In this document: positions 1,739-63,562 of the stretch, in pieces
How positions within the stretch are numbered: position 1 is the stretch's first letter
Layout: every line of letters starts with the position of its first letter
Assembly: GCA_027624315.1 (NCBI GenBank)
Contig: JAQBXX010000005.1
Coordinates: 51 to 64,050, forward strand
Length of the DNA: 64,000 nt
DNA from: Pseudomonadota bacterium
Lineage (GTDB): Bacteria > Pseudomonadota > Gammaproteobacteria > SURF-13
Direction: 5' to 3'
Program-made: the position numbers and the translations under genes
Notes under the pieces: model-generated
What the model was told of the DNA's origin: nothing
Seen by the model: only the letters and a program-made list of their open reading frames with translations
Database searches by the model: none

Positions 1739-1775
1739 GACAGCGTTCCTCCCTGGTGTGTGTCGCTCTACTTTA

Positions 1776-1904: not shown

Positions 1905-1961
1905 GATATCCCGGTCTTATACTGTGCGCACTGGTGGAAACAAACGAGCGGAGATAGCGCC

Positions 1962-2450: not shown

Positions 2451-2492
2451 TCACCGCTCGGCAGACTCACACAGTACAGAGGACACCTACAC

Positions 2493-3134
2493 ATGTCGCG
2501 TAAATTACTTATCGCACTGATCGCTGGCATTGCCTTGCCCGGCATGGTCATGGCACAGCAGGATGTGGCCGGCACGGCCACGCCACCCAAGAACCATGAG
2601 ACCGCCCTGTTTGCCGGTGGCTGTTTCTGGTGTACGGAATCGGATTTCGACAAGATACCCGGCGTGATAGAAACGGTTTTCGGATATGCCGGTGGGCAAA
2701 AGCTCAATCCTACTTACGAAGAGGTGTCCAACGGTGGCACCGGCCACGCAGAAGTGGTGCAGGTGACCTATGACCCTGCAAAAGTCAGCTACAAGGAGCT
2801 GGTAGACAAGTTTTGGCGCACCATCGACCCCACGACTCCGGATCGCCAATTTTGCGATAGCGGCAGCCAGTACCGCAGCGCTATCTTCTATAGCACCCCG
2901 CAACAAAAGGCCATCGCGGAACAATCAAAGACGGCGCTCGAAAAAAACAAGCCGTTTAAGGGGAAGATAGTCACCGAAATCACGCAGGCCACGACGTTCT
3001 ATGCCGCGGAAGAGTATCACCAGAATTTTTACAGAAAGAACCCCGTACGCTACAACTATTACCGCTTCAGCTGCGGCCGCGACCAGCGCCTGGAGCTGTT
3101 ATGGGGAAAGGAACAGGGTCGGGCGTCGCACTGA
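2493..3134 (+). CDS. msrA: Peptide-methionine (S)-S-oxide reductase MsrA with Sec signal
   Basis: AGGCFWC, PTYEEV, TGHAEVVQV, QYRSAIF, AEEYHQ; hydrophobic N-terminal leader. Confidence 0.95.
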   Translation: MSRKLLIALIAGIALPGMVMAQQDVAGTATPPKNHETALFAGGCFWCTESDFDKIPGVIETVFGYAGGQKLNPTYEEVSNGGTGHAEVVQVTYDPAKVSYKELVDKFWRTIDPTTPDRQFCDSGSQYRSAIFYSTPQQKAIAEQSKTALEKNKPFKGKIVTEITQATTFYAAEEYHQNFYRKNPVRYNYYRFSCGRDQRLELLWGKEQGRASH

Positions 3135-3153
3135 CCCATCACGACCCGAATAG

Positions 3154-3230
3154 TGGCGCGCCCTAGAGGATTCGAACCTCTGACCTTTGGGATCGGAACC
3201 CAACGCTCTATCCAACTGAGCTAAGGGCGC
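3154..3230 (-). tRNA. tRNA-Arg(CCG)
   Basis: Minus strand GCGCCCTTAGCTCAGTTGGATAGAGCG TTGGG-TTCCGAT-CCCAA AGGTCAGAGGTTCGAATCCTCTAGGGCGCGCCA; 77-nt cloverleaf with encoded CCA. Confidence 0.95.
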
Positions 3231-3264
3231 AAGTAAAGCAAGTCGCGAGTAGCGCCTCGGCTCG

Positions 3265-3343
3265 CCCCCTTCTCCCCCTGGGAGAAGGGATGGGGATGAG
3301 GGCGTCTACCCTCCTTCTGCCCTTGGGAAGGGATGAGGGAGGG
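3265..3343. repeat. Two tandem CCCTTCTCCC/GGGAGAAGGG-type hairpin repeats
   Basis: CCCTTCTCCCCCTGGGAGAAGGGATGGGGATGAGGG followed by a degenerate second copy; related copies at 39603 and 53704. Confidence 0.6.
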
Positions 3344-3415
3344 CGACTAGCATAGCCACTCTGCCGCCCCCCGTCTATTCGGCCAGCTTGATCTGCGCCC
3401 GGCTGAGAATTTCTG

Positions 3416-3442
3416 CTTGAACTGTGCGATTGTTGCCACTAT
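3416..3442 (+). promoter_or_regulatory. Putative sigma32 heat-shock promoter of groESL
   Basis: CTTGAA-N13-GCCACTAT resembles the consensus CTTGAA-N13-14-CCCCATnT. Confidence 0.55.
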
Positions 3443-3444
3443 GA

Positions 3445-3471
3445 TTAGCACTCACCAAGGGCGAGTGCTAA
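3445..3471 (+). promoter_or_regulatory. CIRCE element (HrcA operator)
   Basis: Perfect TTAGCACTC-N9-GAGTGCTAA upstream of groES. Confidence 0.95.
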
Positions 3472-3557
3472 CAACACCTTCGCCAGATTCCCCGGGTTGT
3501 TGCCGACCACAGGCCTCAGCCTAATATAATTTGTTCAAGATCAAGGAGATAGATGAG

Positions 3558-3842
3558 ATGAAGATTCGTCCGTTGCATGATCGTGTCGTTGTGATCCGCA
3601 TGGAAGAGGAGCGTACCACCGCTGGTGGCATCGTGATCCCCGACAATGCCGCTGAAAAGCCGAGCAAAGGCGAGATCGTGGCCGTCGGTAAGGGCAAGAT
3701 GCTCGACAGTGGCACTATCAGCCCGCTCGAGGTCAAGGTGGGTGACAAGGTGCTGTTTGGCAAGTACTCGGGCACTGAGGTGAAGCTTGAAGGCAAAGAC
3801 CTCATCGTGATGCGCGAGGAAGACATCATGGCTGTGATCTAA
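3558..3842 (+). CDS. groES: Co-chaperonin GroES
   Basis: [12 protein letters not shown]...GGIVIPD...[10 protein letters not shown]; AAGGAG RBS before ATG 3558. Confidence 0.97.
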
Positions 3843-3868
3843 GTCAAGATCACCCCAAAACATACTGA

Positions 3869-5518
<1,650 letters not shown>

Positions 5519-5552
5519 GCAGTAAACCAGCTACTGCTGTTTGCATGAGCTC

Positions 5553-5584
5553 AAAGCCCCCTCCATACGAGGGGGCTTTTTTTT
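5553..5584 (+). terminator. Rho-independent terminator after groEL
   Basis: AAAGCCCCCTC-catac-GAGGGGGCTTT followed by a T run. Confidence 0.85.
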
Positions 5585-5609
5585 GTGCGGAATTCGGTAA
5601 TATGAGTGG

Positions 5610-8549: not shown

Positions 8550-8615
8550 GTCGGATCAAGCGTAGCGGATCCGACTGCTGTGTCGGTTCCGCACTGCGTG
8601 CTTGAGCCGACCTAC
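8546..8615. repeat. Inverted REP doublet (family REP-B; REPIN/BIME-like)
   Basis: GTAGGTCGGATCAAGCGTAGCGGATCCGAC (8546-8575) and an inverted copy ending TTGAGCCGACCTAC (8582-8615); related copies at 41409, 50797 and 51662. Confidence 0.85.
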
Positions 8616-8630
8616 GATTAAGGAGAACGT

Positions 8631-9572
8631 ATGACAACGATGGACGACCGCGATGGCGTCATCTGGTTTGACGGCACGCTGGTGCCCTGGCGTGATGCCA
8701 AGGTGCATGTGCTCACGCACACCCTGCATTATGGGATGGGGGTGTTTGAAGGCGTGCGTGCCTATAAAACGGATAAAGGCACGGCCATCTTCCGCCTCGA
8801 TGCGCACATGGATCGCTTGTTCCGCTCGGCGCATATCCTGGGCATGGACATGCCGTATGATAAGCGCACGCTGAGTGAGGCATGCCGCGCCGCCGTGCAT
8901 GAAAACAGTCTGGAGTCATCAGACTCCAAGTCGGTCTACATCCGGCCCATGTGTTTCTACGGCTCAGAGGGCATGGGGCTGCGCGCCGACAATCTCAAGG
9001 TGCACGCCATCGTTGCGGCCTGGCTGTGGGGTTCGTATATGGGCGCGGAGGGCATCGAGAAGGGCATACGCGTCAAGACCTCATCGTTCACGCGCCATCA
9101 CGTCAACATCACCATGTGCAAGGCGAAGGCCAACGGCAATTACATGAACTCGATGATGGCGCTGCGCGAGGCGCTCTCCTGCGGCGTGGATGAGGCACTG
9201 CTGCTGGATGTGGACGGCTACGTGGCCGAAGGCAGCGGTGAGAATGTCTTCATCGTGCGCGACGGTGTGCTCTACACGCCCGAGCTGACCTCCGCACTGG
9301 ACGGTATCACGCGCGACACCATCTTCACGCTCGCCGCCGAGATCGGCGTCGAGGTGCGCGAAAAGCGCATCACGCGCGACGAGGTGTATATCGCGGACGA
9401 GGCCTTCTTCACCGGCACGGCGGCGGAAGTCACGCCGATCCGCGAGCTGGACGGGCGCCGCATCGGTAACGGTGATCGCGGGCCGATCACTACACGCCTT
9501 CAGGCGTTGTATTTCGACCAGGTACACGGGCGGCGCAAGGAGCATCCCGAGTGGCTTACGCCAGTCGCGTAA
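8631..9572 (+). CDS. ilvE: Branched-chain amino acid aminotransferase
   Basis: LHYGMGVFEG, KAKANGNY, EGSGEN, LDGITR, TGTAAEVTP. Confidence 0.97.
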   Translation: MTTMDDRDGVIWFDGTLVPWRDAKVHVLTHTLHYGMGVFEGVRAYKTDKGTAIFRLDAHMDRLFRSAHILGMDMPYDKRTLSEACRAAVHENSLESSDSKSVYIRPMCFYGSEGMGLRADNLKVHAIVAAWLWGSYMGAEGIEKGIRVKTSSFTRHHVNITMCKAKANGNYMNSMMALREALSCGVDEALLLDVDGYVAEGSGENVFIVRDGVLYTPELTSALDGITRDTIFTLAAEIGVEVREKRITRDEVYIADEAFFTGTAAEVTPIRELDGRRIGNGDRGPITTRLQALYFDQVHGRRKEHPEWLTPVA

Positions 9573-9587
9573 GCTGAGGAGACGAGC

Positions 9588-9806
9588 GTGTCCAAGTCAA
9601 CGCAACAAAATATGACTGCGCGATCCAGCGAGCCCAACGCGCAAAATATTTATCACGTGACGCGCGCCGATCTGCCGCTGCACTGCCCGATGGATCACAT
9701 GAGTCTGTGGAATTCTCACCCGCGCGTCTATCTGCCGATCGAGGCAACGGGCAAGGCGAAGTGTCCGTATTGCGGGGCGGATTACATATTAAAAGACGGC
9801 ACATAG
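9588..9806 (+). CDS. Small CHCC-type zinc-finger protein
   Basis: LPLHCP...WNSHPRVYL...CPYCG. Confidence 0.85.
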   Translation: MSKSTQQNMTARSSEPNAQNIYHVTRADLPLHCPMDHMSLWNSHPRVYLPIEATGKAKCPYCGADYILKDGT

Positions 9807-9850
9807 CCGGATGTGGCTTCTTTACATGGTGAGCCAGCGCAACGCGAACC

Positions 9851-10882
9851 ATGAATGCCCATGAGGTAAAAAAAATCCTTGTCGTCGGCCCGGCCTGGGT
9901 CGGTGACATGGTGATGGCGCAAAGCCTGTTCCAGAGGCTCAAGCAGCAATCCCCCAGTGTAGTCATTGATGTGCTAGCACCGGCCTGGTCCGAGCCGCTG
10001 CTCGCGCGCATGCCGGAGGTGCGCCGTGCACATACGCTGCCGTTCATGCACGGCGAGTTGAAACTCATTGAGCGCCATCGCATCGCGTGCCGCCTGCGCG
10101 CCGAGCGTTATGATCGCGCCATAGTGCTGCCCAACTCTTTCAAGTCTGCGCTGATCCCATTCTGGGCCAATATCCCGCGCCGCACCGGTTATCGCGGCGA
10201 GTTGCGCTGGGGTCTGCTGAACGATGTGCGTCAACTGGATAAAAAAATGCTGCCGCAAACCGTGCAGCGTTTCGTCGCACTCGGGTTGCCAAAGAACGCT
10301 GCGCAGCCGCCGCAGATTCAGTTTCCGCAACTTCATATTTCAAGCGGCAGCGCGCAGGCCGCGCTGTCAGCGTTGCGGCTGGAGCACCCGTCGCAACCGC
10401 TGCTGGCACTGTGTCCGGGCGCCGAATACGGTCCGGCCAAGCGCTGGCCGACAGAGTATTTTGCCGACGTCGCGCGTACAAAAATCGCGCAAGGCTGGAG
10501 CGTGTGGATTTTCGGGTCGGCGCACGACAAGACCATCGCCGCAGAAATTTGCGCACAGGCGGGAGAGGAGTGTGTTGATCTCAGCGGACGCACCTCGCTT
10601 GCTCAAGCCATTGATCTGCTGTCGCTCACCGATCTCGTGCTTACCAACGACTCCGGCATGATGCACGTTGCCGCCGCCCTGGGTCGTAAACTGGTAGCGG
10701 TATATGGTTCGTCCGATCCCGGTTTCACGCCACCGCTCAGCAGCACGGCGCGCGTCGTCTGGCTCAAGCTTGCGTGCAGCCCGTGTTTCGAACGCAAGTG
10801 TCCGCTCGTCCATCTCAATTGTCTGCGTGAGATTAAGCCGGAGCGTGTGCTGGCAGAGATGGCGGCGTTGATCCCCTCATGA
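9851..10882 (+). CDS. waaF: LPS heptosyltransferase II
   Basis: GPAWVGDMVM, LPNSFKSA, PGAEYGPAKRWP, NDSGMMH (GT9). Confidence 0.95.
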   Translation: MNAHEVKKILVVGPAWVGDMVMAQSLFQRLKQQSPSVVIDVLAPAWSEPLLARMPEVRRAHTLPFMHGELKLIERHRIACRLRAERYDRAIVLPNSFKSALIPFWANIPRRTGYRGELRWGLLNDVRQLDKKMLPQTVQRFVALGLPKNAAQPPQIQFPQLHISSGSAQAALSALRLEHPSQPLLALCPGAEYGPAKRWPTEYFADVARTKIAQGWSVWIFGSAHDKTIAAEICAQAGEECVDLSGRTSLAQAIDLLSLTDLVLTNDSGMMHVAAALGRKLVAVYGSSDPGFTPPLSSTARVVWLKLACSPCFERKCPLVHLNCLREIKPERVLAEMAALIPS

Positions 10883-11910
10883 AGGTGCTGATTGTCAAAA
10901 CATCTTCTCTCGGAGACGTGTTGCACACGCTGCCCGCGCTGACCGATGCCGCGCTGGCGCTGCCCGGCATTCGTTTTGACTGGGTAGTGGAGGAAGCGTT
11001 TGCGGAAATCCCTGCATGGCATCCGGCAGTGGACAGGGTGATTCCTGTTGCATTGCGGCGCTGGCGCAAGCACCCATTACAGGCATTGCGCAGCGGCGAG
11101 TGGGGCCGCTCCCGTGATGCGTTGCGCGCGGATAGTTACGCCAGGATTATTGATGCCCAAGGGCTGTTGAAAAGCGCTGTGCTCACAAGGATGGCGCGCG
11201 GCACACGTTGTGGCTTGGACCGGGCCTCTGCGCGTGAGTCACTGGCTGCGCTCGCCTACCATGAGCGTTACGCCATCCCCAAGGGACAGCTGGCCATAGA
11301 GCGCTTACGTCAATTGTTCGCAGCCGCCCTGAATTACGAGGCACCCGCCAAGGCGCCTGACTATGGCATTCGACGTGCGTCCCCACCCACCGGGAGGTTG
11401 TCCGATAAGGTGGTTTTTGTGCATGGCACGACCTGGTCAAGTAAACTATGGCCCGATGAGTATTGGGTACAACTGGCGCAGTTGGTCAATGAGGCTGGCC
11501 TGGGAGTCCAGCTGCCGTGGGGCAGCGCAAGAGAATTAGAGCGAGCACAAAAAATTTCAGGGGCTGCAAAAAATGTCGAGATACTGCCCAAAATGGATCT
11601 GGCACAGATAGCCCAGGTACTGACCTCCGCGCGCGGCGTGGTGGGGATTGATACAGGGCTGACCTATCTTGCGATCGCGCTGGGTGTGCCCACCGCCACC
11701 CTCTACGGAGCCACACGGCCGGAGTTCATGGAGATGCCAGGGCAAGGACAACGGTATATTCGCGCTGACTTTGGCTGCTCACCGTGCATGGCGCGCACGT
11801 GCAGTTATCGCGGTGAGTCGGTGGTTCAGCCTGCATGTTATCAAACCCTGCCGCCGGACACGGTATGGCGCGCCGCCGGGGAGTTGTTCGATGCTTACAG
11901 ACGCGCCTGA
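10879..11910 (+). CDS. waaC: LPS heptosyltransferase I
   Basis: KTSSLGDVLH, DAQGLLKS, HGTTWSSKLWP, GIDTG. Confidence 0.93.
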   Translation: MKVLIVKTSSLGDVLHTLPALTDAALALPGIRFDWVVEEAFAEIPAWHPAVDRVIPVALRRWRKHPLQALRSGEWGRSRDALRADSYARIIDAQGLLKSAVLTRMARGTRCGLDRASARESLAALAYHERYAIPKGQLAIERLRQLFAAALNYEAPAKAPDYGIRRASPPTGRLSDKVVFVHGTTWSSKLWPDEYWVQLAQLVNEAGLGVQLPWGSARELERAQKISGAAKNVEILPKMDLAQIAQVLTSARGVVGIDTGLTYLAIALGVPTATLYGATRPEFMEMPGQGQRYIRADFGCSPCMARTCSYRGESVVQPACYQTLPPDTVWRAAGELFDAYRRA

Positions 11911-15218: not shown

Positions 15219-16364
15219 TTGGTTGAGAGGTTCACATACAAGGTGCATTCACAAACGATGCAAAGATTGCTCTTCAAGCTCACACTATATTTTCTATGGG
15301 TACATAGCCGCTTTGGCACTAAGCGAGCCAAGACTATCGTGGTCTGCTGCCCCTTGTTCATCGGGGATATGGTGTTTACCTTCCCTCTCTTGCGGAGCAT
15401 CAAAAAAAGATATCCAGATTACCAACTGATCTTCCTTTGTCGGAAGGAGTTTCAATCACTGGCGGCCCTCAACCCGGACATTGATACTGTTCTGCATATC
15501 GATAAAACAGCTAACAGCCTCTTGGCGGTCTATCCCAAGATTTCACAAGCAACCTATTTCTTAACCCCGATGGCAAATTATTGGATAAAGCTCGGCCGGG
15601 CGATAGCTGCCCATGAAATATGGTATCTGAGCAAAATGGCTCAGCCATCATCGATGCCTCCCATAACGCAAAGCTTTTCTGCTTCGCCCAAGCATATCTC
15701 GGAATACCTATTGCAGATAAATATCGCAATGGGCGGTGAGTCAAATGTCGACAACAGCCCCTACCTTAGAAATCAGGAGCTATATCCCACACTAGTCGTT
15801 ATCCAATGTGACGGCAGGAACCAAAGCATAAAATCCTTCACAACGGATCAGTTAGCCAACCTCATTAAGCTTGCCAAAAAATATCCAGTAGATATTCGGT
15901 TGATGGGCATGTACGCACCTGAAAAGCGATTGAATGAAGACAGAATAATCGACGTGCGAGGATTAACTGGATTTGACGATTGGCTGAAAGATATATTGAG
16001 GGCCAGGCTCGTCATTGGGCTTGATTCAGCTGCAGCCCAGATTCGTAAAGCCGCCGGCCTGCCAGCCTGCATCCTGATGGGCCCAGCCGCTACGGATTTC
16101 TTCGGCAATAGCCCGTTTTTCCCCTCAATCGACCTCATCGACAACAGGAATCTACCCTGCCGAGATAGAGGCACATTCCAAGGAATCCATTTCCCAAGCC
16201 TGAAAAACTGTCAAAAATCTGCCTGCGACCATCCTGAGGGCAGGGTTTGCGTGGAGGGCGCTGTTTTTGCAGAATTCATGGTACTAGTCAATCGGCATCT
16301 GGCGAACAGCTTCCCCCGCCCACTGCCTGATCCCTATGATGGAGGGGCAACCCGTCTGACATGA
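15219..16364 (+). CDS. Divergent GT9 (heptosyltransferase-like) glycosyltransferase
   Basis: IGDMV...LLRSIK, IGLDSAAAQI, Cys4 C-terminal motif; the start may be ATG 15258. Confidence 0.75.
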   Translation: MVERFTYKVHSQTMQRLLFKLTLYFLWVHSRFGTKRAKTIVVCCPLFIGDMVFTFPLLRSIKKRYPDYQLIFLCRKEFQSLAALNPDIDTVLHIDKTANSLLAVYPKISQATYFLTPMANYWIKLGRAIAAHEIWYLSKMAQPSSMPPITQSFSASPKHISEYLLQINIAMGGESNVDNSPYLRNQELYPTLVVIQCDGRNQSIKSFTTDQLANLIKLAKKYPVDIRLMGMYAPEKRLNEDRIIDVRGLTGFDDWLKDILRARLVIGLDSAAAQIRKAAGLPACILMGPAATDFFGNSPFFPSIDLIDNRNLPCRDRGTFQGIHFPSLKNCQKSACDHPEGRVCVEGAVFAEFMVLVNRHLANSFPRPLPDPYDGGATRLT

Positions 16365-16471
16365 AGCCTAGTGTCAACGAAATCGAGGGAAGATGCAGCA
16401 CCGATTTTCGGACGGTGTTAAATTAGAGTTTGGCTGGTTTGACAGCATCCTCCTGGTCTCACTTCGCATGC

Positions 16472-17512
16472 TCAGTCGGTGTTATGGATAGCCTCCATTA
16501 CCTCCTTGACTGTGATGCCGGCGATCTGCCCGGCTCGCTCGATTAAGCAGCATCCATCTGTCCATGGTAGCCAGGTGTCCTTGATCTGGACGCCGGACAA
16601 GACGGTGACAGGTAGTCTCAGCATTGCTGCCAGATGTGATACGCCACCTTCCTGGCAGACTACATGGTCCAGTGTCTTGATTTGTGCAATCAGTGCGGCA
16701 GTCCCCTTCGGGTGAATGGATGTAAGAATGGGGGGCAGAGGTACCTTGTTTTTTTTGCTCAAAAATACCTTAACCTCATGGCCTGCATCATTTAAACCGG
16801 TGGCCAAATCGAGCCATTTTTCATAAGGCCACTGGCTTTGTTTTCTGTTTGATTCCGGGAAGAGTCCAATCCGGAGGCCTTGATTTGGGTGCCTTATGTG
16901 AGTTGCCTTGGGAGGGGCTTCGAGAGGTAAGCCGGCGCGATTGAAGACGTTGGCAATCCGTATGAGCTGGTGCGCTTCCCACAGATCTCTTTCCATAGGC
17001 CGGCAATCATCCAGGGCGATTTGCCATATCCTGGGTTCGCTCTTATGGGCGACAGCCAACTTGTAGCGTGCGCGCACGGCTGCCAGTAGCATGATGGCCT
17101 TGCTGGAATAGGCTGCGGAACCATTCAGCGCAATATCGAAGACCCGTGCGCGTAGCTGCCGCACTGTCGGATGTAAGAAGAGTCCGAATGGGCTTCCAAG
17201 ATATTTCTCAGGCAGTTCCAGAACTTCGATCCCGGGCAGGGCTTCCCGAAATACCGGAGCAGCATAGGAGTTGCTGAGTACGGTGATGCTTATTGATGGG
17301 TATTCACGCCGTAGTTGCTGAAGAATCAGGGCGGTGATAACGGCATCTCCAATCCGGTTCCTTCGGACTACCAATATGGAGTCGATTTTCCGGGGCAGGG
17401 CTCTGGGTTTGTGGAAGCTGGCCAATCCCAGATAAAGACCCGCCCCTAGCCGCCTTAACAACCATTGCCATGGCTGCTTTATCAGGTCGGTTGGCTTTTC
17501 AATTTTCTGCAT
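16472..17512 (-). CDS. GT9-family glycosyltransferase
   Basis: RRNRIGDAV, QWPYEKW, EGGVSHLAA. Confidence 0.78.
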   Translation of the reverse strand: MQKIEKPTDLIKQPWQWLLRRLGAGLYLGLASFHKPRALPRKIDSILVVRRNRIGDAVITALILQQLRREYPSISITVLSNSYAAPVFREALPGIEVLELPEKYLGSPFGLFLHPTVRQLRARVFDIALNGSAAYSSKAIMLLAAVRARYKLAVAHKSEPRIWQIALDDCRPMERDLWEAHQLIRIANVFNRAGLPLEAPPKATHIRHPNQGLRIGLFPESNRKQSQWPYEKWLDLATGLNDAGHEVKVFLSKKNKVPLPPILTSIHPKGTAALIAQIKTLDHVVCQEGGVSHLAAMLRLPVTVLSGVQIKDTWLPWTDGCCLIERAGQIAGITVKEVMEAIHNTD

Positions 17513-17535
17513 TGGCTGGTTTCACATAAGTCACA

Positions 17536-18684
17536 TCAGAAATTGTCTTGCTGCCGATGCGTTGAAAATTTCTCCAGGGCATGCGTCAAGGCGTCCAGGG
17601 AGATGCCTGCAAAGCAATGCCTCGTCTCGAAGAGACACGCACTGCGCTGACAGTTCTTTATCCAGCCAGTGTGTATGCCATGGACTATGCTCTTGTCCTG
17701 GCAGTCGAGTGGGGCGCAGGATAGATTGAGGGATTGCGGACTTAGCCCCCAATCAGCGCCGAATAAATTGACGTCCGACGGCCCCATAACCGCCAGGCAG
17801 GGCACGGAAAACAGCCTGGCCCAATGTGCAACCCCAGTATCCACGGTGACGACATATTTGGCTCGTGCCACCAAATCCAACAGCTCACCCAAATCTGTTG
17901 CGTCGATCCTGTCATGTATTTGATGTGCGTGTGCCGGAAAATCACGAAGCAAGCTCCGCAAACCATCAAGGTAGTTCTGGTCGATTGATCTCCCAGTCAG
18001 TACAAGATGTTCCCCATTCGCCAACAAGCGGCCCACAATTAAGTGCAGCATCTCAGGTGGCCATAGGCGAGCTGGAATGCTGGCCCCAATGTGCAGAATC
18101 ACATGGCCGCGCGTACGGGTCTCGCTTGGGAGGCTCATCTTGGCATAGGGCGGTGTAGGCGTCGTCACCCCCAGCTTGCTGCCCAAGGTAAGGATTGCTC
18201 TGGCCAGGGTTTGAGGTGATCGGGGGAACTCGTGTAACTCATCGACTAATGCGGTGTGCCTTCCTTTGGGATCCGCGTGGCTGATTACCTTACCTGCCGG
18301 GAGTTTCGAGACCAAGGGCAAGAATTTCCAGGAAAAAACATTGATAATCTCCGCATACCCGCTTGGTGATGCGTCCACCAAGCGAATCAGTGCACGCCAA
18401 CCAAGTCTCTCGACAGCCACAACCCTGTCGGCATACAAGTAATGCGCTGTTGTTGCCAGACTCGCCCGTGTAAGCAAGACAATCTGTTTATCGGGATTGG
18501 ATTCCTTCAGCGCTTTGAGCAAGTAGCCTGCCATCGCCAAATCCCCGAGCAGGAGATACCCAAGCACAAGAATAGGGCGCTCGCTGTCACCGCATCTGGC
18601 CGTCCTTGACCTGGCTATGGCATAGAGCCTTCCAAGGGCGAGGACGCTGAGCTTGTCGAGGCTATGAATCAGCCTTGAGAACAT
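17536..18684 (-). CDS. GT9-family glycosyltransferase
   Basis: LLGDLAM, HIGASIPARLWP, VDTGVAHWA, Cys4 tail. Confidence 0.8.
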   Translation of the reverse strand: MFSRLIHSLDKLSVLALGRLYAIARSRTARCGDSERPILVLGYLLLGDLAMAGYLLKALKESNPDKQIVLLTRASLATTAHYLYADRVVAVERLGWRALIRLVDASPSGYAEIINVFSWKFLPLVSKLPAGKVISHADPKGRHTALVDELHEFPRSPQTLARAILTLGSKLGVTTPTPPYAKMSLPSETRTRGHVILHIGASIPARLWPPEMLHLIVGRLLANGEHLVLTGRSIDQNYLDGLRSLLRDFPAHAHQIHDRIDATDLGELLDLVARAKYVVTVDTGVAHWARLFSVPCLAVMGPSDVNLFGADWGLSPQSLNLSCAPLDCQDKSIVHGIHTGWIKNCQRSACLFETRHCFAGISLDALTHALEKFSTHRQQDNF

Positions 18685-19609
18685 GTCTTTCCATCCATTT
18701 CCGCATAAGGCGCGGGGTATGTTTCAGCACCTTGTTTCTCTTGGTATAGTCATCAGGAATATATCCATGCCAAGGTGATTGCGCCAGATATCTGTTGAAA
18801 CGCCACTTGAATGGGTGACTTCCCAGGTAATGCCAGGGTTTGAGCTTTGCAGCAAAGTGGACAATCATGTCCGGCAAGAATCCCGTGAGCCCCATCCTGG
18901 CCAATAGTCCATAAAGTCTCAAGCGCCACTTGTTTTCACGCGTGGGAAGCAAGTTCCAAACCGACGGCAAGAATAAGGCTTGCGCCCCCAAGACAAGATT
19001 CAGGGCATCCTGATCGTGGAAGCGCAAATGGAGGCTGCTGTCTGCAATTACTTGCATGAGCTTGTCCCCGACGTGTTGGCGCTTCCATGCGCCAACGTCA
19101 ATCAACATCACCCCTGAATTGAAATAGCGCAGGGGCTTGCGGGCGCCAAGGTGCGACAAATTGAGGTAGGGTGCATCTGCGACCACTCCAACAGCACGCC
19201 CATCGAGATTGACATCCCATAATTTCCGCAACGACCCAAGAACCAAGGTATCGGCATCAAGATAGATGACGCGCTCAACCGCGTGGGGCAACTTATCCGA
19301 CATGAATAGGCGCATATAAGCCGCGGCATTTATACGGCCGGATTCGTAAAGGTTTGATGGAAGATACTCCCTGCTGAATGGCACCGGACGAAGAACAACC
19401 CCTTGGCTGGCTGCATGTCCGGAAACTTTCCGGATGACATCATCGGGCACTTCGAGGGCAAACCAATAGAGAGTGATTCGAGCCTCCGTCACTGTACCGC
19501 ACAGTGAGCTGATCAATACTGCCAAAGGCATTGCATAGTTGGCATCGGAACAAGTCAGCAGGTTGATATTGGCCGGGGCTCTCTTCATATCATCGTAGAA
19601 TAATGGCAT
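18662..19609 (-). CDS. GT8 glycosyltransferase (LgtC/WaaI-like)
   Basis: SDANY, YLDAD, YFNSGVMLID, HDQDALN, HFAAKLKPW; start at ATG 19609 or 19588. Confidence 0.88.
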   Translation of the reverse strand: MPLFYDDMKRAPANINLLTCSDANYAMPLAVLISSLCGTVTEARITLYWFALEVPDDVIRKVSGHAASQGVVLRPVPFSREYLPSNLYESGRINAAAYMRLFMSDKLPHAVERVIYLDADTLVLGSLRKLWDVNLDGRAVGVVADAPYLNLSHLGARKPLRYFNSGVMLIDVGAWKRQHVGDKLMQVIADSSLHLRFHDQDALNLVLGAQALFLPSVWNLLPTRENKWRLRLYGLLARMGLTGFLPDMIVHFAAKLKPWHYLGSHPFKWRFNRYLAQSPWHGYIPDDYTKRNKVLKHTPRLMRKWMERHVLKADS

Positions 19610-19834
19610 CGGGGTAAGACCAGATAGGCTAGTCTGCCACCTGACGGCTAAACAGGTCGAGCATGGCGGCCAGTTACAGCCAGCTCTCATTGGCAAGGTG
19701 TGATCAATCCCGGTCTTTAAGGGTCTCGGTAATGACAAAGATGAGGTCTGCACCACAAAGAAACCGGTTAAGACTATAATGCAATTGCCCACAAACAACC
19801 ATGGGCGTTAATTGTGGCCAAGGAATAGCCGGGA

Positions 19835-38266: not shown

Positions 38267-38420
38267 TAGGGCACCTCTAAAAATCCGCTAAAGCCACGAT
38301 GGCCCGTTGGAAGTGCGCTTAAAATGCGGGGCCGCGAAGCGGCAGACTACCTGTACACTGCGCTTTTTCGCGCATTTCCGCCTTGCCCTCGCGTCTTGAT
38401 CGAATTTTTAGACGCGCCTA
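38267..38420. mobile_element. Palindromic MITE-like element with nested GTAG-REP
   Basis: Ends TAGGGCACCTCTAAAAATCCG and CGAATTTTTAGACGCGCCTA; core GGGGCCGCGAAGCGGCAGACTAC is shared with 63466. Confidence 0.7.
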
Positions 38421-47697: not shown

Positions 47698-48321
47698 GCG
47701 CACCAGCACCTCGGTGATCCCACGCAGGATAAATTCCATCGCCACGGCAAGCAGCAGCATGCCCATGATGCGCGTGGTGACGCGCGCGCCGGTCGGCCCC
47801 AGTTTTTCAAACAAGGGGTCGGCCATGCGGAACATGATGTAAAGCACGAGTGCGGTCACCAGTATCACGCCGCTGAGTTGCGCGTGCCCGGCCAGGCTTG
47901 CGCCTTGCTGCTGGGCGTACAGGACCACTGCGGTGATGGTGCCGGGGCCGGCGAGCATGGGAATGCCGAGCGGCACGATGGAGATGTCCTCGCGGTGCGC
48001 GGACTCCTCGCCTTGCACGCCCTGCACGCGCGAGGGTGTGGCGTGCAACATCGACCACGCCATGGATGCGAGGATCAGGCCGCCCGCTACCTGGAAGCTG
48101 GGCAGGCTGATGCCAATGAGGGTAAGCAGGTACATGCCGCCGTATTGAAAGAACAGCAGCGTCACCACCACGGTGACAATCATGCGCAATAAAACCTTGC
48201 GCCGCTGTGCGGCTGCCATGTCATGCGTAAGGGAAAGATAAAGCGGCATCACGTCGAACGGCGCGAGTACCACCAGCAACGAGACGAATTGCTTGATAAG
48301 CAGTATGGTGTCGAATTGCAT
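47695..48321 (-). CDS. MarC family membrane protein
   Basis: FQVAGGLIL, VPLGIPMLAGPG, TRIMGMLL. Confidence 0.92.
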   Translation of the reverse strand: MQFDTILLIKQFVSLLVVLAPFDVMPLYLSLTHDMAAAQRRKVLLRMIVTVVVTLLFFQYGGMYLLTLIGISLPSFQVAGGLILASMAWSMLHATPSRVQGVQGEESAHREDISIVPLGIPMLAGPGTITAVVLYAQQQGASLAGHAQLSGVILVTALVLYIMFRMADPLFEKLGPTGARVTTRIMGMLLLAVAMEFILRGITEVLVR

Positions 48322-49313
48322 CAGGCTGTTTCCCGCATGTTGCCTGCATTATAGGATGCAAGCACGCCCTCAAGCCAGGCAGGAATGCGCTCCTCCAGCC
48401 AGTAACACGCCCGCCAGGGTGCGCTTCCGTAAACAAAGCCCACGTGTCCACCGTGCCCGGACAACTCCAGGGTCACGTGCGGCGAGAGTTCGGCCTGTGT
48501 GGGGGTTGCCTTGCGCGTCAGGAAAGGGTCATCGGCGGCATGCAGCACCAGCGTGGGAATGCCGATCCGCCCGAGATATTGACGACAGCTTGATTGCGTA
48601 TAGTAGTCGTCCACCCCGGCGAATCCATGCAGCGGCGCGGTGACGGCATCGTCGTAAGTGCGCAAGGTGCGCAGGCGATCAAGATCGCCGATGTCGAGCG
48701 GCAGCCTCATGTGTCTTGATTTTTCGCGTACCGTATCGCGCAGGCAACGCAGCAGATGCCGTTGATAAAATCTGGAAAGGCCGCGTTGTAGCCGCAGCAC
48801 CGACTCATTCATGTCGAACGGCACGGACACCGCCACAGCGCAGGTGAGCGGCGCGTGCTGCCCCTGCTCACCCAGCCATTTCAACAACACATTGCCGCCG
48901 AGCGAATAGCCGACCGCGGCGAGTGGCGTGTGCGGTTCGCGTGCGTGCAGGACATTGACCAGCGTATTGAGATCACCCGTCTCTCCGCCGTGGTAAAAGC
49001 GCGGTAGCCGATTCGGTTCGCCGCTGCAACCGCGAAAGTGCATCAGTACGGCGCGATAGCCGCGTTGATGGAGGGCGCGCAAAATCCCGCGTGCATAGCT
49101 GGAGTTGCTCGAACCTTGCAGGCCGTGCAGGACTATCACCACCGGTCCGGATGCGCCGGTAGTCCAGTCCAGATCGACAAAGTCACCATCCGGCAGTTCC
49201 AGCCGCTCGCGCCGCAACGCGGTATTTTCAGCACGGCGCACCACGTTCGCCCACAGCGTTTGCAGGTGCGCATTACGCAGCCACCAGGCGGGTATGAAGG
49301 GGTTGTTCAGCAC
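48321..49313 (-). CDS. YheT-family alpha/beta hydrolase
   Basis: NAHLQT, DGDFVDLDW, HGLQG, GYSLGG, ADDPF, GGHVGF. Confidence 0.92.
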   Translation of the reverse strand: MLNNPFIPAWWLRNAHLQTLWANVVRRAENTALRRERLELPDGDFVDLDWTTGASGPVVIVLHGLQGSSNSSYARGILRALHQRGYRAVLMHFRGCSGEPNRLPRFYHGGETGDLNTLVNVLHAREPHTPLAAVGYSLGGNVLLKWLGEQGQHAPLTCAVAVSVPFDMNESVLRLQRGLSRFYQRHLLRCLRDTVREKSRHMRLPLDIGDLDRLRTLRTYDDAVTAPLHGFAGVDDYYTQSSCRQYLGRIGIPTLVLHAADDPFLTRKATPTQAELSPHVTLELSGHGGHVGFVYGSAPWRACYWLEERIPAWLEGVLASYNAGNMRETA

Positions 49314-49343
49314 GCGCGTTATCGCCGGTTTATGCAGAGGGTC

Positions 49344-49373
49344 ATCGGAACCGCTACGCTCAACCCATTCTGC
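49344..49373 (-). repeat. Chimeric REP (REP-A 5' half joined to REP-B 3' half)
   Basis: Minus strand reads GCAGAATGGGTTG AGCGTA GCGGTTCCGAT. Confidence 0.7.
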
Positions 49374-50163
49374 GATCTGGCCTGTGGAGCCGACGGCGAT
49401 GCAGCATCCAGGCCACTTGCACCGTGGCTACAGCGGCGAGCAAATGCTTGATGGCGTGGCCGCTCACTATTCCACCGAACTGATAGACAGTGCTGTCCAT
49501 GACCTCAAACATCTTGGCTAGCACATACCAGCCAGCCACCAGCAGCAAAGCCCAGCCGTGACTGTAGCGCGGAGGGTGCAGCAGCAATAATAGCGGTATA
49601 AGCAGCAGGGGTAGCAACTGCACCAGAATATAGGGTCGCAGGTCGCCACGTCCCCATGTTTCGCTCAGGTACCAATAAATCACACTGGCTACTGCGTAAA
49701 CCAACATGGGCAGCAAGCTCCACGCAGCAAGTCGCGCCGACACCCTTTCGGCCAGCACAGCAGCAAACAGGCAGATAAACGACAGTGTGATGGGCAAGCG
49801 ATCCCATACCAGACGCAGATTGTCAGGCTGCCAGTGATAGTAGGCCGAGCCAAAAAACGTCAGCAACACACCCAGCAAAAAGCCGGCCCACACCACCCGC
49901 TCGAACCGGGTGCTTATTATAAAGCGCGGCAAGCGCCGCAGCCCCCACAGTCCCACCAGCAAAAACGGCAGATTAGAGAGCACATTCTGTGCGTTGGGCA
50001 ACCACCACCAAGACCGCGTATCAGCAAAGTTGTTATAACCGGCGATTTGTGGAATGCGTCCGTAGAAAAACAGGGCAATCACTACCGCCGCCGCCACAGC
50101 CAGCAATAACGCCGCACGCGCGCCCGCAGGCCAATTCCTCACATGATTTAAAATAGAATGCAT
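49360..50163 (-). CDS. Alkaline ceramidase-like (CREST superfamily) membrane protein
   Basis: NFADTR, NVLSNLPF, GSAYYH, WDRLP, GDLRPY, SGHAIKH; about 7-8 transmembrane segments. Confidence 0.82.
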   Translation of the reverse strand: MHSILNHVRNWPAGARAALLLAVAAAVVIALFFYGRIPQIAGYNNFADTRSWWWLPNAQNVLSNLPFLLVGLWGLRRLPRFIISTRFERVVWAGFLLGVLLTFFGSAYYHWQPDNLRLVWDRLPITLSFICLFAAVLAERVSARLAAWSLLPMLVYAVASVIYWYLSETWGRGDLRPYILVQLLPLLLIPLLLLLHPPRYSHGWALLLVAGWYVLAKMFEVMDSTVYQFGGIVSGHAIKHLLAAVATVQVAWMLHRRRLHRPDRRMG

Positions 50164-50171
50164 TTAGTTTT

Positions 50172-50203
50172 GTAGGATGGGTTGAGCGTAGCGATACCCA
50201 TCA
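50172..50203 (+). repeat. REP-A flanking the RAYT gene
   Basis: GTAGGATGGGTTGAGCGTAGCGATACCCATCA: GTAG plus imperfect hairpin. Confidence 0.9.
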
Positions 50204-50207
50204 TGGC

Positions 50208-50738
50208 TCATTCACCAAAACCGTCCTCAATGCCATCTTCACCCCATGCCCAATCCGCCGCATACCGTCCTCGGCGAACATGATGGTGAAATGACGAATA
50301 AGGCCAATCCTGTACCCGTTTCACATGGCCGTGTTTGACGGGGTTGAAGTGAATATAATCCACATGGCGCTCGAAATCGCATTCGTCGCGGATAGTATGC
50401 TCCCAGTAGCGCCGTTGCCATATTCCCCGCTCTTCCTTCGACAGACGGCTGTTTGATCGTCTTTCACCCGACGCCAAGGCCCGCGAGAAATTTGTTTTAA
50501 TTAATCGCCAGCGCAGGGCGTAGTCACAATCGTCTTGAGGCAGAGTACACACGGCGTGAAGATGATCCGGTAGCACCACAATAGCGTCTATCGAAAATGG
50601 GTGATGACGCCGCACCGCACGAAAAGCAGCGCGTAAAAGATCGATATGTTCGGTAAGCAACTGCACACTACGCTGCGCGAGATTAACCGTGAAGAAATAA
50701 GTGCCACCCGGAACAAAGTTGCGCCGATAATTTGCCAT
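50208..50738 (-). CDS. REP-associated tyrosine transposase (RAYT/TnpA-REP, HUH Y1)
   Basis: YFFTVN, PDHLH (HUH), WQRRYWEHTIRD, YIHFNPVKHG, DWPYSS; flanked by inverted REPs; alternative start 50753. Confidence 0.93.
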   Translation of the reverse strand: MANYRRNFVPGGTYFFTVNLAQRSVQLLTEHIDLLRAAFRAVRRHHPFSIDAIVVLPDHLHAVCTLPQDDCDYALRWRLIKTNFSRALASGERRSNSRLSKEERGIWQRRYWEHTIRDECDFERHVDYIHFNPVKHGHVKRVQDWPYSSFHHHVRRGRYAADWAWGEDGIEDGFGE

Positions 50739-50760
50739 TGATACATTATACAAGCATCAT

Positions 50761-50792
50761 TGATGGGTATCGCTGCGCTCAACCCATCCTAC
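50761..50792 (-). repeat. REP-A (inverted) flanking the RAYT gene
   Basis: Reverse complement of 50172-50203 at 31/32. Confidence 0.9.
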
Positions 50793-50796
50793 GAGT

Positions 50797-50815
50797 TACG
50801 CTTGATCCGACCTAC
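50797..50815 (-). repeat. 5' half of REP-B
   Basis: Minus strand GTAGGTCGGATCAAGCGTA, identical to 8546-8564. Confidence 0.85.
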
Positions 50816-51641
50816 TTGACTGCAGCACGTCGTTAGATGCCATTGTCATCGAATTTCTCACGAAAGTCCTTCAGGACCTGCTCGTAATTCGTAATACGAA
50901 GCCACGTCAGTGTTCCGAGCAGCGCGCCTTGGCAGGCCTTCAGCTCGCCCAGCCGTGGCTCTGCTTGTTGCGTCAAACGCCCGACCAAGGGAAGAACGCT
51001 GCCGACGAGGTAGGTCAGCTCGCTCACCACTAGGAAGAGCCCGGGTATCGACAACTGAGGGCCGACGTAGACACGAGCCCCCTCAAGATCGTGGGACAGG
51101 AACGCGGACGCTGGCGTGACGTGGATCCCAAGTTCGCAGAGAACTCTGTAGGCGGGCTCGTCGACGATCGGCCTTTCATCGCGCGCTTCCACCAACCGAC
51201 GCACGGCCGCTGGACCATATCGACTCATTCGTTCGGAGCGTGAGGATGCCGTCCAGGTGCCCAGTTCCACCGGGGCGAGAAAAAAGAGCTGGAGGAGGTT
51301 CGCCAACTCGCCAGCACTGCGGATCACTCCAATCGCTTCGTCATAGTAGCCGAGATAGGCCAAGCGTAAGGCTGCCGTTGCCGCGTTGGCGAGACGGCGC
51401 ACGAGGTTCTCCACCGCATGGCCGGCGTGGCGACAGCCCCATGCACAGGACGCGATCTGAGCAAGCAACGACAGGCCATCTCCGAGCCGCGTGAGCATCT
51501 CAGGTCCGCGCACTCCAAGCTGCCCTTTCGCATCAAGTTGGAGAGCGGCCTGCTGGGCAGCCTCCTCAAGGCGTCGGATGTTATCGATGAGTTCGCGGCC
51601 TTTCAGAAAGCCGTCCGGCTGCTCTATCATGTGCGTCTAAC
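50816..51641 (-). mobile_element. Orphan integron-type gene cassette with truncated attC
   Basis: GTTAGAC-GCAC-ATG at the start; the stop lies within ATCTAAC, followed by GACGT-GCTGCAGTC. Confidence 0.65.
50833..51630 (-). CDS. Hypothetical alpha-helical protein (DUF5677/HEPN-like motif pattern)
   Basis: GYYDEAIGVIRSAGE and YRVLCELGIH motifs; fills the cassette exactly. Confidence 0.7.
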   Translation of the reverse strand: MIEQPDGFLKGRELIDNIRRLEEAAQQAALQLDAKGQLGVRGPEMLTRLGDGLSLLAQIASCAWGCRHAGHAVENLVRRLANAATAALRLAYLGYYDEAIGVIRSAGELANLLQLFFLAPVELGTWTASSRSERMSRYGPAAVRRLVEARDERPIVDEPAYRVLCELGIHVTPASAFLSHDLEGARVYVGPQLSIPGLFLVVSELTYLVGSVLPLVGRLTQQAEPRLGELKACQGALLGTLTWLRITNYEQVLKDFREKFDDNGI

Positions 51642-51661
51642 GTATATTCGACATCAGTTAG

Positions 51662-51690
51662 GTAGGTCGGATCAAGCTAGCGGATCCAAC
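51662..51690 (+). repeat. REP-B copy
   Basis: GTAGGTCGGATCAAGC-TAGCGGATCCAAC, abutting the acs stop codon. Confidence 0.85.
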
Positions 51691-53658
51691 TCATGCCTTC
51701 CCCTGCAACTGCAGCAGGATCGCCTCGTTCTCCAGCGTCGAGGTGTCTTGGGTGATGGCCTCACCGGCGGCGATGGAGCGCAGCAGGCGGCGCATGATTT
51801 TGCCGGAGCGGGTTTTGGGGAGGTTGTCGGCGTAGCGGATGTCGTCGGGGCGGGCGATGGGGCCGATCTGTTCGGTGACCCAGGCGCGTAGTTCTTTGGT
51901 GAGCGTTTCGTCCACGCCGCCCGCGGGGCGTGCGCCGCGTAACACGACGTAGGCGAATACGGCTTCGCCTTTAATCTCGTCGGGTTTGCCGACCACGGCG
52001 GCTTCGGCGACGCGCGGATGCGCGACGAGGGCGGATTCGATCTCCATGGTGCCGAGGCGGTGGCCGGATACTTTCAGTACGTCGTCGGCGCGGCCCATGA
52101 TCCAGAAATAGCCGTCTGCGTCGCGGTGCGCGGTGTCGCCGGCGACGTAGTACTTGTTGCTGAATTTCTTCCAGTAGGTGTCCAGGTAGCGCTGCTCGTC
52201 GCCCCAGATACCGCGCAGCATGAACGGCCAGGGTTTCTTGATGACGAGATAGCCGCCCTGGTTGGGCGCGGTAATGCTGTTGCCTTCTTCGTCCACGACG
52301 TCCGCCGCGATGCCGGGCAGCGGCAGGGTGCAGGAACCGGGCTTGGTGGGCATGGCGCCGGGGATGGGGGCGATCAGGTGCGCGCCGGTTTCGGTTTGCC
52401 ACCAGGTGTCCACGATCGGGCAGCGCTCATGGCCGATGTGTTTGCGATACCACATCCACGCCTCGGGGTTGATCGGTTCGCCCACGGTGCCGAGCAAACG
52501 CAGCTTCGATAAATCATATTTCGCTGGAATTTCGTCGCCCAGTTTCATCAGGCCGCGTATTGCGGTGGGCGCGGTGTAGAAAATAGTTACGTTGTGGCGC
52601 TGGCAGATGTCCCAGAAACGTCCGCCGTCGGGAATGGTCGGCGCGCCTTCGTACATCAGCGTCGTCGCGCCGGTCGCAAGCGGGCCGTAGGTGACGTAGC
52701 TGTGGCCCGTCACCCAGCCGACATCGGCGGTGCACCAGAAGATGTCGTCGTCGTGGATGTCGAACACCCACTGCATGGTGACGATGGTGCCGAGCAGATA
52801 GCCCGCGCTCGCATGCTGGATGCCCTTGGGTTTGCCGGTGGAGCCGGAGGTGTAGAGCAGAAATAATGGGTGCTCGCTCTCGACCCACACCGGCTCGCAC
52901 TGGTCGGCAACGTTTTTCACGGCATCGTGCCACCATGCATCACGCCCCGCCTGCATGTTGACCTGCTGGCCGGCGCGTTGCAACACGATCACGTTCTCAA
53001 TGCTGGGGCAGCCTTTGCTCAATGCCAGATCGGCGGCGGCCTTGAGCTCGATGACCTTGCCGCCGCGTGTGCCGCCGTCGGCGGTGATAAGCATTCTTGC
53101 TCCGGCGTCTTCGATGCGGTCCTTCAGCGACTGCGCGGAGAAGCCGCCGAACACGACCGAATGAATGGCGCCGATGCGTGCGCACGCCTGCATGGCGACG
53201 ACGACCTCCGGCACCATCGGCATGTAGATCACCACGCGGTCGCCTTTTTTAATACCCTTGGCCTTGAGCGCATTGGCAAAGCGGCATACGTCACGATGCA
53301 GCTCGGCGTAACTCACGCGGCGGACGTCGCCTTGCTCGCCTTCGAAAATAATGGCGGTTTTGTCGGCCCTGTCCTTGAGGTTGCGATCAAGGCAGTTGTA
53401 GGAAACATTCAGCAGTCCGTCGTCAAACCAGCGGTAGTGCGGCGCATTGCTGCTGTCGAGAATGTTAGTGAATGGCTTGTGCCAGATGATTTCGTTGCGC
53501 GCGAGGGTGGCCCAGAAGTTTTCGTGGTCTGCATCGCCCTGCTGTTGAAGTGCGACCAACTGTTCCCTGCTTTTGACGCGCGCATGCGTGGAAAAATCGG
53601 GTGACGGCGCAAACAGCCGTTCTTCGTGCAGGGTGGATTCGAGGTTTTTGGTGGTCAC
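51691..53658 (-). CDS. acs: Acetyl-CoA synthetase
   Basis: [40 protein letters not shown]. Confidence 0.97.
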
Positions 53659-53703
53659 GTCAGAGCCTCATATTGGGGCAGGGTGGCGATCCTTGGCTTA
53701 CTA

Positions 53704-53740
53704 CCCCCATCCTAGCCTTCCCCCTGGGAGGGGGAAGGGA
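53704..53740. repeat. CCTTCCCCC/GGGGGAAGG hairpin repeat
   Basis: CCCCCATCCTAG CCTTCCCCCT-ggg-AGGGGGAAGG; related to 3265 and 39603 in inverted orientation. Confidence 0.6.
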
Positions 53741-53757
53741 AATTAATTTTGTCAGGG

Positions 53758-54540
53758 TTAGAGTGCGGCCATGCCAACGATGTGGTAGCCGCTGTCCACG
53801 TGCACGATCTCGCCGGTGATGCCGGCGGCCAGGTCGGAGCAGAGGAAGGCCGCAGTGTTGCCCACGTCGTCGATGGTGACGTTGCGCCGTAGCGGGGAGT
53901 TTTTCTCCGCATAATCGAGCATCTTGCGGAAGCCGCCAATGCCGGCGGCGGCGAGTGTCTTGATCGGCCCGGCGGAGATCGCGTTCACGCGTATACCCTC
54001 GGGGCCGAGGCTGTCGGCCATGTAGCGCACGTTGGCTTCGAGGCTCGCCTTGGCGAGGCCCATCACGTTGTAATTGGGAACGACACTCTCCGCGCCGAGG
54101 TAGCTGAGCGTGAGCAGTGCGCCGTTGCGCCCCTGCATCATGTTGCGCCCGGCCTTGGCGAGCGCGGTGAAGCTGTAGGAGCTGATGTCGTGGGCGATGA
54201 GAAAGCCCTCGCGCGTTACGGCGTCGAGATAGTTGCCCTCCAGTTCCTTGGCGGGCGCATAGGCCACCGAGTGGACGATGATGTCGAGGTGATCCCAGTA
54301 GTCATCCAGATGTTCGAACACCGCGTCGATTTCGGTGTCGTTGCTCACGTCGCACGGCAGGGTGATCACCGAGTCGCATTCCGCGGCCATTTTCTCCACG
54401 CGCTCCTGCAGCCGCTCATTCTGGTAGGTGAAGGCGAGCTGCGCCCCTTCCCGCTGCATGGCCTTGGCAATGCCCCAGGCGATGGAGCGGTTGCTGGCGA
54501 GCCCTACGATGAGTGCGCATTTACCGTCGAGAAATCCCAT
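53758..54540 (-). CDS. fabI: Enoyl-ACP reductase
   Basis: [43 protein letters not shown]. Confidence 0.97.
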
Positions 54541-63402: not shown

Positions 63403-63562
63403 TATACATAGCGCCCTAAATCTACTGCGCGTCTTTGATGCGGGTGCGTGCGGTGCTCGGAATCCGGGGCCGCGTAGCGGCAGACTACTTGTACACTCCG
63501 GTTCCTGCGCTCCGCCGCCCCCGCCTCAAAGCCGCTCGCTACGATTTATGTCGCTATGTATA
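63403..63562. mobile_element. Palindromic MITE-like element with nested GTAG-REP
   Basis: TATACATAGCGCCCTAAATC and GATTTATGTCGCTATGTATA are inverted at 18/20; core GGGGCCGCGTAGCGGCAGACTAC. Confidence 0.75.

Follow-up and report, generated by a model that had tools for sequence, protein, structure and literature searches.

An intact accessory gene with integron cassette-like ends beside a RAYT gene in a gammaproteobacterial contig

Between an acetyl-CoA synthetase gene (acs) and a REP-associated tyrosine transposase (RAYT) gene, the stretch of 64,000 nucleotides analysed here, which we call the window, carries a gene of a sparse and unnamed protein family, P0001, whose two ends resemble those of an integron cassette. 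Our tentative reading, in which we place a little less than even confidence, is that this is one intact accessory gene and not a working cassette, and that the two cassette-type heptamers at its ends are not relics of recombination by the integron integrase (IntI) at this locus. The preliminary description of this DNA had seen in it an orphan cassette whose attC was cut off by a REP element; the heptamers, their geometry and a cassette-borne homolog in another genome agree with that view, whereas an L' or R' element, an attC-like fold and an integrase were not found at the locus.

The gene, its neighbors and the REP elements

On the minus strand the order of elements is acs, a full REP-B copy, 20 nt, GTTAGAC, GCAC, the ATG, the P0001 ORF, a truncated REP-B copy, a REP-A copy, the RAYT gene, and a further REP-A copy. 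P0001 (minus strand, 50833..51630, ATG at 51630-51628) is intact, encodes 265 amino acids, and is a single gene wedged between its same-strand upstream neighbor acs (51691..53658, minus; Pfam AMP-binding at 3.7e-91, with AMP-binding_C and ACAS_N) and the RAYT gene (50208..50738, minus, ATG at 50738), which was confirmed by its match to NCBIfam NF047646 with an E-value of 8.9e-62 and a score of 207 bits relative to a cut-off of 80. All 52 called ORFs of the window are housekeeping or unknown; besides P0001 and the RAYT gene, the content includes groEL, glnE, an LPS core cluster, clpB, nrdAB, acnB, purB, fabI and an ABC transporter. The composition of P0001 is ordinary, with GC 0.609 and GC3 0.684 relative to window means of 0.597 and 0.713 (GC3 standard deviation 0.084); the adjoining RAYT gene, as P0001 is not, is a compositional outlier, with GC 0.509 and GC3 0.489 against the same means. 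Neither a sigma-70-like site upstream of P0001 on the minus strand nor a Shine-Dalgarno sequence of its own was found, and for this reason read-through from acs is probably the simplest route of expression.

Since P0001 matches no family in Pfam, NCBIfam or PADLOC and has no ribosome-binding site, one might ask whether it is a real gene at all or whether its motifs are intergenic noise. This idea is refuted almost beyond doubt by its homologs, the profile hits and a confident predicted fold. The homologs P0002 and P0003 are 79% and 58% identical to P0001, the others lower, and they share the invariant residues Cys62, Cys66 and His71 of the family, which also has conserved Glu, Arg, Asn and His positions. 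An initial search gave only 10 relatives, and a profile of 26 members yielded 1371 representatives at E≤1e-3; source annotations, compared for 10 relatives, read 'hypothetical protein' or were lacking. The predicted structure is an all-helical bundle (pLDDT 89.9, pTM 0.88). In its all-alpha fold and its size of about 250 aa, P0001 is like the helical proteins of the DUF5677 and DUF6988 type; it differs from them in that the family has no match at the Pfam cut-off and P0001 matches nothing. Weak Pfam DUF5677 matches occurred in 4 of 11 family members (best E 0.022), none of them reaching the gathering score and P0001 itself matching 0 families; Atlas gave only hypothetical clusters, and neighbors there carried DUF5677 or DUF6988 in 10% of members. 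A relative of solved structure was not found, neither by PDB sequence at an E-value under 0.096 nor by fold at one under 0.13, and tblastn against plasmids and phages gave no match.

P0001 is bracketed by two inverted copies of REP-B, a feature overlooked in the preliminary description. The full copy (plus strand, 51662..51690), with a GTAG head and an 8-bp hairpin, abuts the acs stop codon, has an exact 16-mer match, and shows its hairpin in the fold of 51631-51693. The truncated copy (minus strand, 50795..50822) consists of the GTAG head and the first hairpin arm only (50815-50795), plus 7 nt, and 19 nt of it are identical to the REP-B copy at 8546. Around P0001 there is in this way a 23-nt inverted repeat (50800-50822 and 51655-51677), complementary at 21 of 23 positions (91%), which runs 7 nt (5/7) past the REP-B consensus of the other copies. 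Elsewhere in the window REP-B is present as a doublet at 8546 and 8600 (8546-8615) and as a single copy at 41409. When up to 3 mismatches were allowed, the REP-B pattern gave 7 matches relative to 0.41 expected, a number that 0 of 100 shuffles reached; four intergenic gaps in the window bear REP-B, and two of these flank P0001.

The RAYT gene itself is flanked by REP-A instead of REP-B, with a 32-nt copy at 50761..50792 (minus) that is 97% complementary to its inverted partner at 50172..50203 (plus). With a Y1 transposase (NF047646), inverted REP-A flanks, and GTAG-headed hairpin REPs repeated in intergenic gaps, REP-B occurring there as a doublet and as singles, the region is like known REP and REPIN-RAYT systems, on which PMC3337134 and PMC3116915 give background. 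The REP-B pair at P0001 differs from a REPIN in that one copy is truncated, in that it is not the cognate flank of this RAYT, and in that its GTAG heads face inward, whereas those of the REP-B doublet and of the RAYT-flanking REP-A pair face outward. This orientation indicates that the pair represents two separate back-to-back REPs and not a REPIN split by an insertion. A degenerate third REP-A copy, with an 81-86% match to the RAYT-flanking copies, lies at 49344-49375 between a hydrolase gene and a ceramidase-like ORF, so that three gaps in succession around the RAYT gene carry REP-A.

Cassette-like ends and the search for attC

The core GTTAGAC, which fits GTTRRRY, lies at 51635..51641 on the minus strand, 4 nt before the ATG, with GCAC between them. 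At the other end of the gene, ATCTAAC (50832..50838, minus) fits the inverse core RYYYAAC and holds the TAA stop codon (50835-50833) at its positions 4-6; it is complementary to the 5' core at 6 of 7 positions, and with neighboring bases included 8 of 9 positions pair between GTTAGACGC and GCATCTAAC. Five nucleotides after the inverse core (spacer GACGT) comes GCTGCAGTC (50818..50826, minus), which is like an L'' arm and whose last bases lie inside the inverted repeat, followed by AA and then, starting at 50815 on the minus strand, by GTAGGTCGG. A further heptamer, ACCTAAC, is found at 51663-51657, 15 nt ahead of the GTTAGAC core. All of these motifs were present where the preliminary description had placed them; of the two that it had taken as further attC and cassette features, however, ACCTAAC belongs entirely, and GCTGCAGTC by about half, to the REP-B inverted repeat. 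P0001 is thereby like an integron cassette in being a single promoterless ORF with GTTRRRY before its start, RYYYAAC holding its stop, and complementary ends. A SALIN is an isolated cassette with a single detectable attC and no integron-integrase; P0001 is like a SALIN in having no integrase nearby, and a member of its family lies in a real cassette array, but it differs from a SALIN in that no attC is detectable, the L'-R' half and the hairpin being absent, and in that a relative's flank homology crosses the supposed junction.

To judge how often such ends arise by chance we used as controls a set of 310 genes, each called as a longest ORF, drawn from the window and from 17 homolog loci; L011, the cassette array described below, was excluded. 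GTTRRRY occurs 62 times on both strands of the 64-kb window. In 3 of the 310 controls a strict core stood no more than 25 nt ahead of the start, a figure that is rough because the start calls are crude, and in 7 a strict inverse core lay at the stop or up to 15 nt after it. Both strict heptamers were present in only one of the 310, which is P0001 itself, relative to about 0.07 expected under independence. The joint coincidence of heptamers at P0001 is thus real and fairly rare. Terminal inverted repeats sought without regard to motif (9 nt, at least 8/9) occurred in 12 of 320 genes and are not rare, and therefore it is the two heptamers, not the complementary ends, that carry the weight. When 15 attC sites cut from class 1 integrons in plasmid records were used as a reference for geometry, the stop TAA occupied positions 4-6 of the inverse core in 8 of the 15, the same register as in P0001; the core stood 3 nt before the ATG of the next gene in two cases; and one site, that of cmlA1, had an L''-like 7-mer, GCTGCAG, identical to the one at P0001 and likewise 5 nt from the inverse core. 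The cassette-like geometry proposed for the ends of P0001 is therefore that of real class 1 cassettes.

A complete attC is an imperfect palindrome of about 57-141 nt, with an L''/L' stem and extrahelical bases, that ends in a second core, R'. For GCTGCAGTC there was no L' partner within 330 nt, the best candidate matching at 7 of 9 positions and lying inside REP-A, and a second core R' was not found after P0001. The 3' flank of P0001 folded no better than its shuffles (z of -0.59 over 87 nt and -0.16 over 48 nt); for comparison, the attC of L011 folded with a z of -2.77, and 0 of 200 shuffles was as good. The missing half was also looked for beyond the RAYT block, and it is not there. None of the 52 called ORFs of the window matched a recombinase family at E≤1e-5, which confirmed the earlier statement that the window holds no intI.

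Two attC models of our own making were also used. R1, built from 10 L011 attC sites, found 14 sites in L011 and 0 in the other 18 sources, and is too narrow for this to mean much. R2, built from 15 class 1 attC sites, has a structure with 82.7% of cells paired, a value as high as which was given by 0 of 500 shuffles; it failed its positive control in that it missed the L011 attC sites, and it is therefore insensitive and its negative results on the homolog loci are weak. Neither of these home-made models, with their limited reach, found an attC site in the 64-kb window. With filters off over 48000-54000, the best R2 hit was 50777-50838 on the plus strand, opposite to P0001, with 13.5 bits and an E-value of 0.037 for 12 kb; it consists of REP-A and the complement of the inverse core, and we regard it as noise, as chance hits elsewhere reach 13.9 bits. 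With no L' or R', no fold, and a model hit at noise level, we found no complete attC at P0001. A weight matrix for the spacer and L'' of class 1 sites ranked the site at P0001 9th of 62, in a test without power, since true L011 sites score no better. The top two of these 62 inverse-core-like sites are in the REP-A loops at 50777-50783 and 50181-50187, which read GCTCAAC and then CCATCCTAC; this ranking suggests that REP hairpins can look like halves of an attC and could lead to spurious attC calls. Three further home-made attC scanners, which relied on R-box pairs with folding or with stem counting, were set aside after they missed true L011 sites or did no better than shuffles, and no Rfam attC family fired on the L011 array, where the sole Rfam hit was one tRNA.

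Homologs in other genomes

A genome scan gave 18 loci in very different phyla. One of these is L011, a Flavobacterium aquicola contig of 11.4 kb (1-11389) with 14 called ORFs, all on one strand, and 14 copies of a 133-nt attC-like repeat, whose consensus hairpin has 29 pairs, 8 of them with compensatory changes. The cassettes include ThsB-TIR, ThsA-Macro and SLATT_5 genes; L011 is an integrase-less array of defense-gene cassettes in a Bacteroidota genome. In the family member that it carries (9179-9970), G|TTACTT precedes the ATG by 8 nt, and the stop codon lies, in the same register as that of P0001, inside AAGTAAC, the exact complement of that core; after the gene comes a variant attC of its own, whose stems are compensated. 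For the preliminary description, a family never borne on cassettes would have spoken against a cassette origin; this is not the situation, as a distant homolog lies in a true array of 14 attC sites with matching geometry.

Homologs in intact cassettes with a full attC, which it had also been proposed to look for, were found at 1 of the 18 loci (L011) and at none of the other 17 by a repeat search or by R1 and R2, two models of limited sensitivity (for L008, R2 was run with default filters only). This 1 of 18 is a lower bound, because lone divergent attC sites are poorly detectable by the means used. An integron integrase was likewise not found in the other 17 loci, where the scan covered those 148 of the 272 called ORFs of at least 100 aa that lie no farther than about 5 kb from the match, and excluded L008, which nearly duplicates L007. 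A tyrosine recombinase at L004 was rejected as an integron integrase, falling far below every NCBIfam cut-off, and L010 was rejected as a cassette array, its repeats (a perfect 20-nt inverted pair and others) not fitting R'' and R'.

Many of the homolog loci resemble anti-phage defense islands or mobile DNA, with neighbors that include restriction genes of the MmeI type and Mrr, SAVED, AbiEii, Hypoth_Ymh, DUF1156/DUF499 and transposases. From such neighbors we would guess at a defense or abortive-infection-type role for P0001, which itself stands among housekeeping genes, unlike most family members elsewhere. In Dehalococcoidia loci (L007, 9893-12594; L018, 9217-17741) the start of a 623-aa gene without a known family is overlapped by the homolog, which in L018 lies between a NOV_C gene and a DUF1156, DUF499 and HEPN_Swt1 set, arrangements which suggest that some family members may work inside multi-gene defense operons. 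Published work shows that a defense gene carried by a cassette in one species can lie outside integrons in other species (10.1101/2024.07.02.601686); as such genes occur in both settings, one cassette-borne relative does not make the other members former cassettes. Integrons are reported to occur in 17% of genomes (10.64898/2026.03.17.712381).

At none of the 18 loci did tblastn (E≤1) detect a RAYT, and no convincing REP-B was present among them, two matches having 3 mismatches each. The P0001 family therefore has no standing tie to REP/RAYT. The link between a RAYT/REP system and an integron that the preliminary description had drawn does not recur at the homolog loci, and its basis is the adjacency seen in the window.

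The nearest relative with genomic DNA, L001, comes from a Gemmatimonadales bin; its protein is 59% identical to P0001, and GTTAGGT stands upstream of its gene. This comparison covers the 5' side, as the contig ends within the 3' end of the gene. The two leaders, aligned as GTCGAATATACGTTAGACGCAC against GTCCAATACCCGTTAGGTGCAC, are identical at 17 of 22 positions, and with the GTTAG core common to both we concluded that the core was inherited and is not a local accident. Beyond the supposed G|TT junction the homology runs on through a further 11 upstream nucleotides, 8 of which are identical. In the cassette model the bases upstream of G|TT belong to the neighbor at the insertion site, so their conservation argues against it, and homology across the junction fits a gene-plus-leader unit better; alternatively, there was an old cassette stage and later transfers carried some flank along. 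L001 has a Shine-Dalgarno sequence, AGGAAAG, at the position where the window has its ATG, indicating that the state described earlier as leaving no room for a ribosome-binding site is derived in the lineage of the window. About 190 nt upstream of the L001 homolog, at 9169-9798, are five tandem copies of a GC-rich 105-nt unit, with GTTAGAC seen in four of the units; this repeat was rejected as attC, having no matching inverse core.

Origin of the locus

The reading that we tentatively prefer is that P0001 would have arrived by horizontal transfer as a gene-plus-leader unit, with a leader, including the GTTAG core, shared with L001; that REP-B copies would have come to fill both intergenic gaps beside it, as at two other gaps of the window; that the heptamers would be a conserved leader element and a stop-codon context and not relics of IntI recombination at the locus; and that the gene would be transcribed by read-through from acs. 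The inverted REP-B pair, the lack of a recombinase and of a second attC half, the L001 leader and the native-like composition all favor such an ordinary gene. Its cost is that the joint heptamers, unique among 310 controls, must count as coincidence, and that the real-cassette geometry, the cassette-borne L011 homolog with the same register and the GCTGCAG identical to that of cmlA1 go unused; REP-B on both flanks, when only 4 gaps of the window carry it, is mildly unusual as well. The heptamers, the geometry and the L011 homolog argue for a decayed integron cassette, inserted outside an integron in the manner of a SALIN, that kept the 5' TTAGAC and R''-spacer-L'', lost L'-R' through a deletion or when REP-B arrived, and so became immobile, a history that we consider possible and yet more doubtful. 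Under it both heptamers stand at exact cassette positions with ends 8/9 complementary; the stop register is that of 8 of 15 real cassettes, two of which also have 3-nt leaders; the L011 homolog in its array has a core that is the exact complement of its stop-holding inverse core; the GTTAG core is kept in L001; and a promoter and Shine-Dalgarno are missing, as in many cassettes. Isolated cassettes and IntI-driven insertion at non-att sites are documented (10.1101/2022.09.11.507474), and in some genomes small palindromes are reported to be targets of REP insertion (PMC3733652). What such a cassette does not explain is the absence of L', R' and any attC-like fold, of intI and of any other attC in 64 kb, the 8/11 homology to L001 over the 11 nt upstream of G|TT, which is unexpected at the junction of an independent insertion, and the native-like composition of P0001; moreover, visibly cassette-borne loci are only 1 of 18, and 9.3% of all 12-mers are at least as close to class 1 attC sites as the spacer and L'' are, a comparison without power for other attC types. 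On balance we rate an ordinary horizontally acquired gene slightly higher than a decayed cassette.

Capture between REPs, in which recombination of REP-B copies or RAYT action on the inverted pair moved P0001 and the true ends are the REP-B copies themselves, we consider improbable. The 23-nt inverted repeat that brackets the gene and reaches 7 nt (5/7) beyond the REP-B consensus, the position of two of the four REP-B-bearing gaps on either side of P0001, and the adjoining RAYT gene would all be accounted for; the GTAG heads, however, face P0001, opposite to the RAYT/REP-A unit and to the doublet at 8546-8615, the adjacent RAYT is flanked by REP-A and not REP-B, one REP-B copy is truncated, there is no target duplication, and neither a RAYT nor a convincing REP-B turned up at any of the 18 homolog loci. 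We think it similarly unlikely that REP-B landed in the attC hairpin of a cassette that IntI had inserted outside an integron, removed the L'-R' half, and froze the cassette beside the RAYT gene. An attC cut off by a REP would look the same here as one that had never existed, and a REP is one of several ways in which a half-site can be lost.

If REP-B did enter an attC, the locus would represent direct cross-talk between two systems based on single-stranded DNA hairpins, by which cassettes would turn into chromosomal genes hidden from attC-based tools. The interest of the locus would lie in such a mechanistic connection of REP/RAYT with integrons, for which we found no support. If P0001 is a former cassette, it would be an example of an integron cassette decaying into a fixed chromosomal gene, to which tools that look for a whole attC are blind, so that isolated cassettes would be undercounted. 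Descriptions of isolated cassettes that lack an integrase exist already, with 3400 SALINs in 2469 of 21,105 genomes (10.1101/2022.09.11.507474), and a decayed one would be a new example and not a new kind. Either way, an unnamed family with more than 1000 representatives, near phage-defense genes and in at least one cassette array, is a candidate for defense screens.

Two observations concern other parts of the window. A 43-nt direct repeat, 88% identical between its copies at 38323-38365 and 63461-63503, is neither REP-A nor REP-B, and one copy lies at the start of a NUDIX gene. The lowest GC3 of the window (0.545-0.614) and its most atypical codon use are found in four adjacent genes of the LPS core type at 15219-19798, of which three encode glycosyltransferases and the fourth matches no Pfam family; this suggests that this segment of the core-oligosaccharide cluster may have been swapped in.
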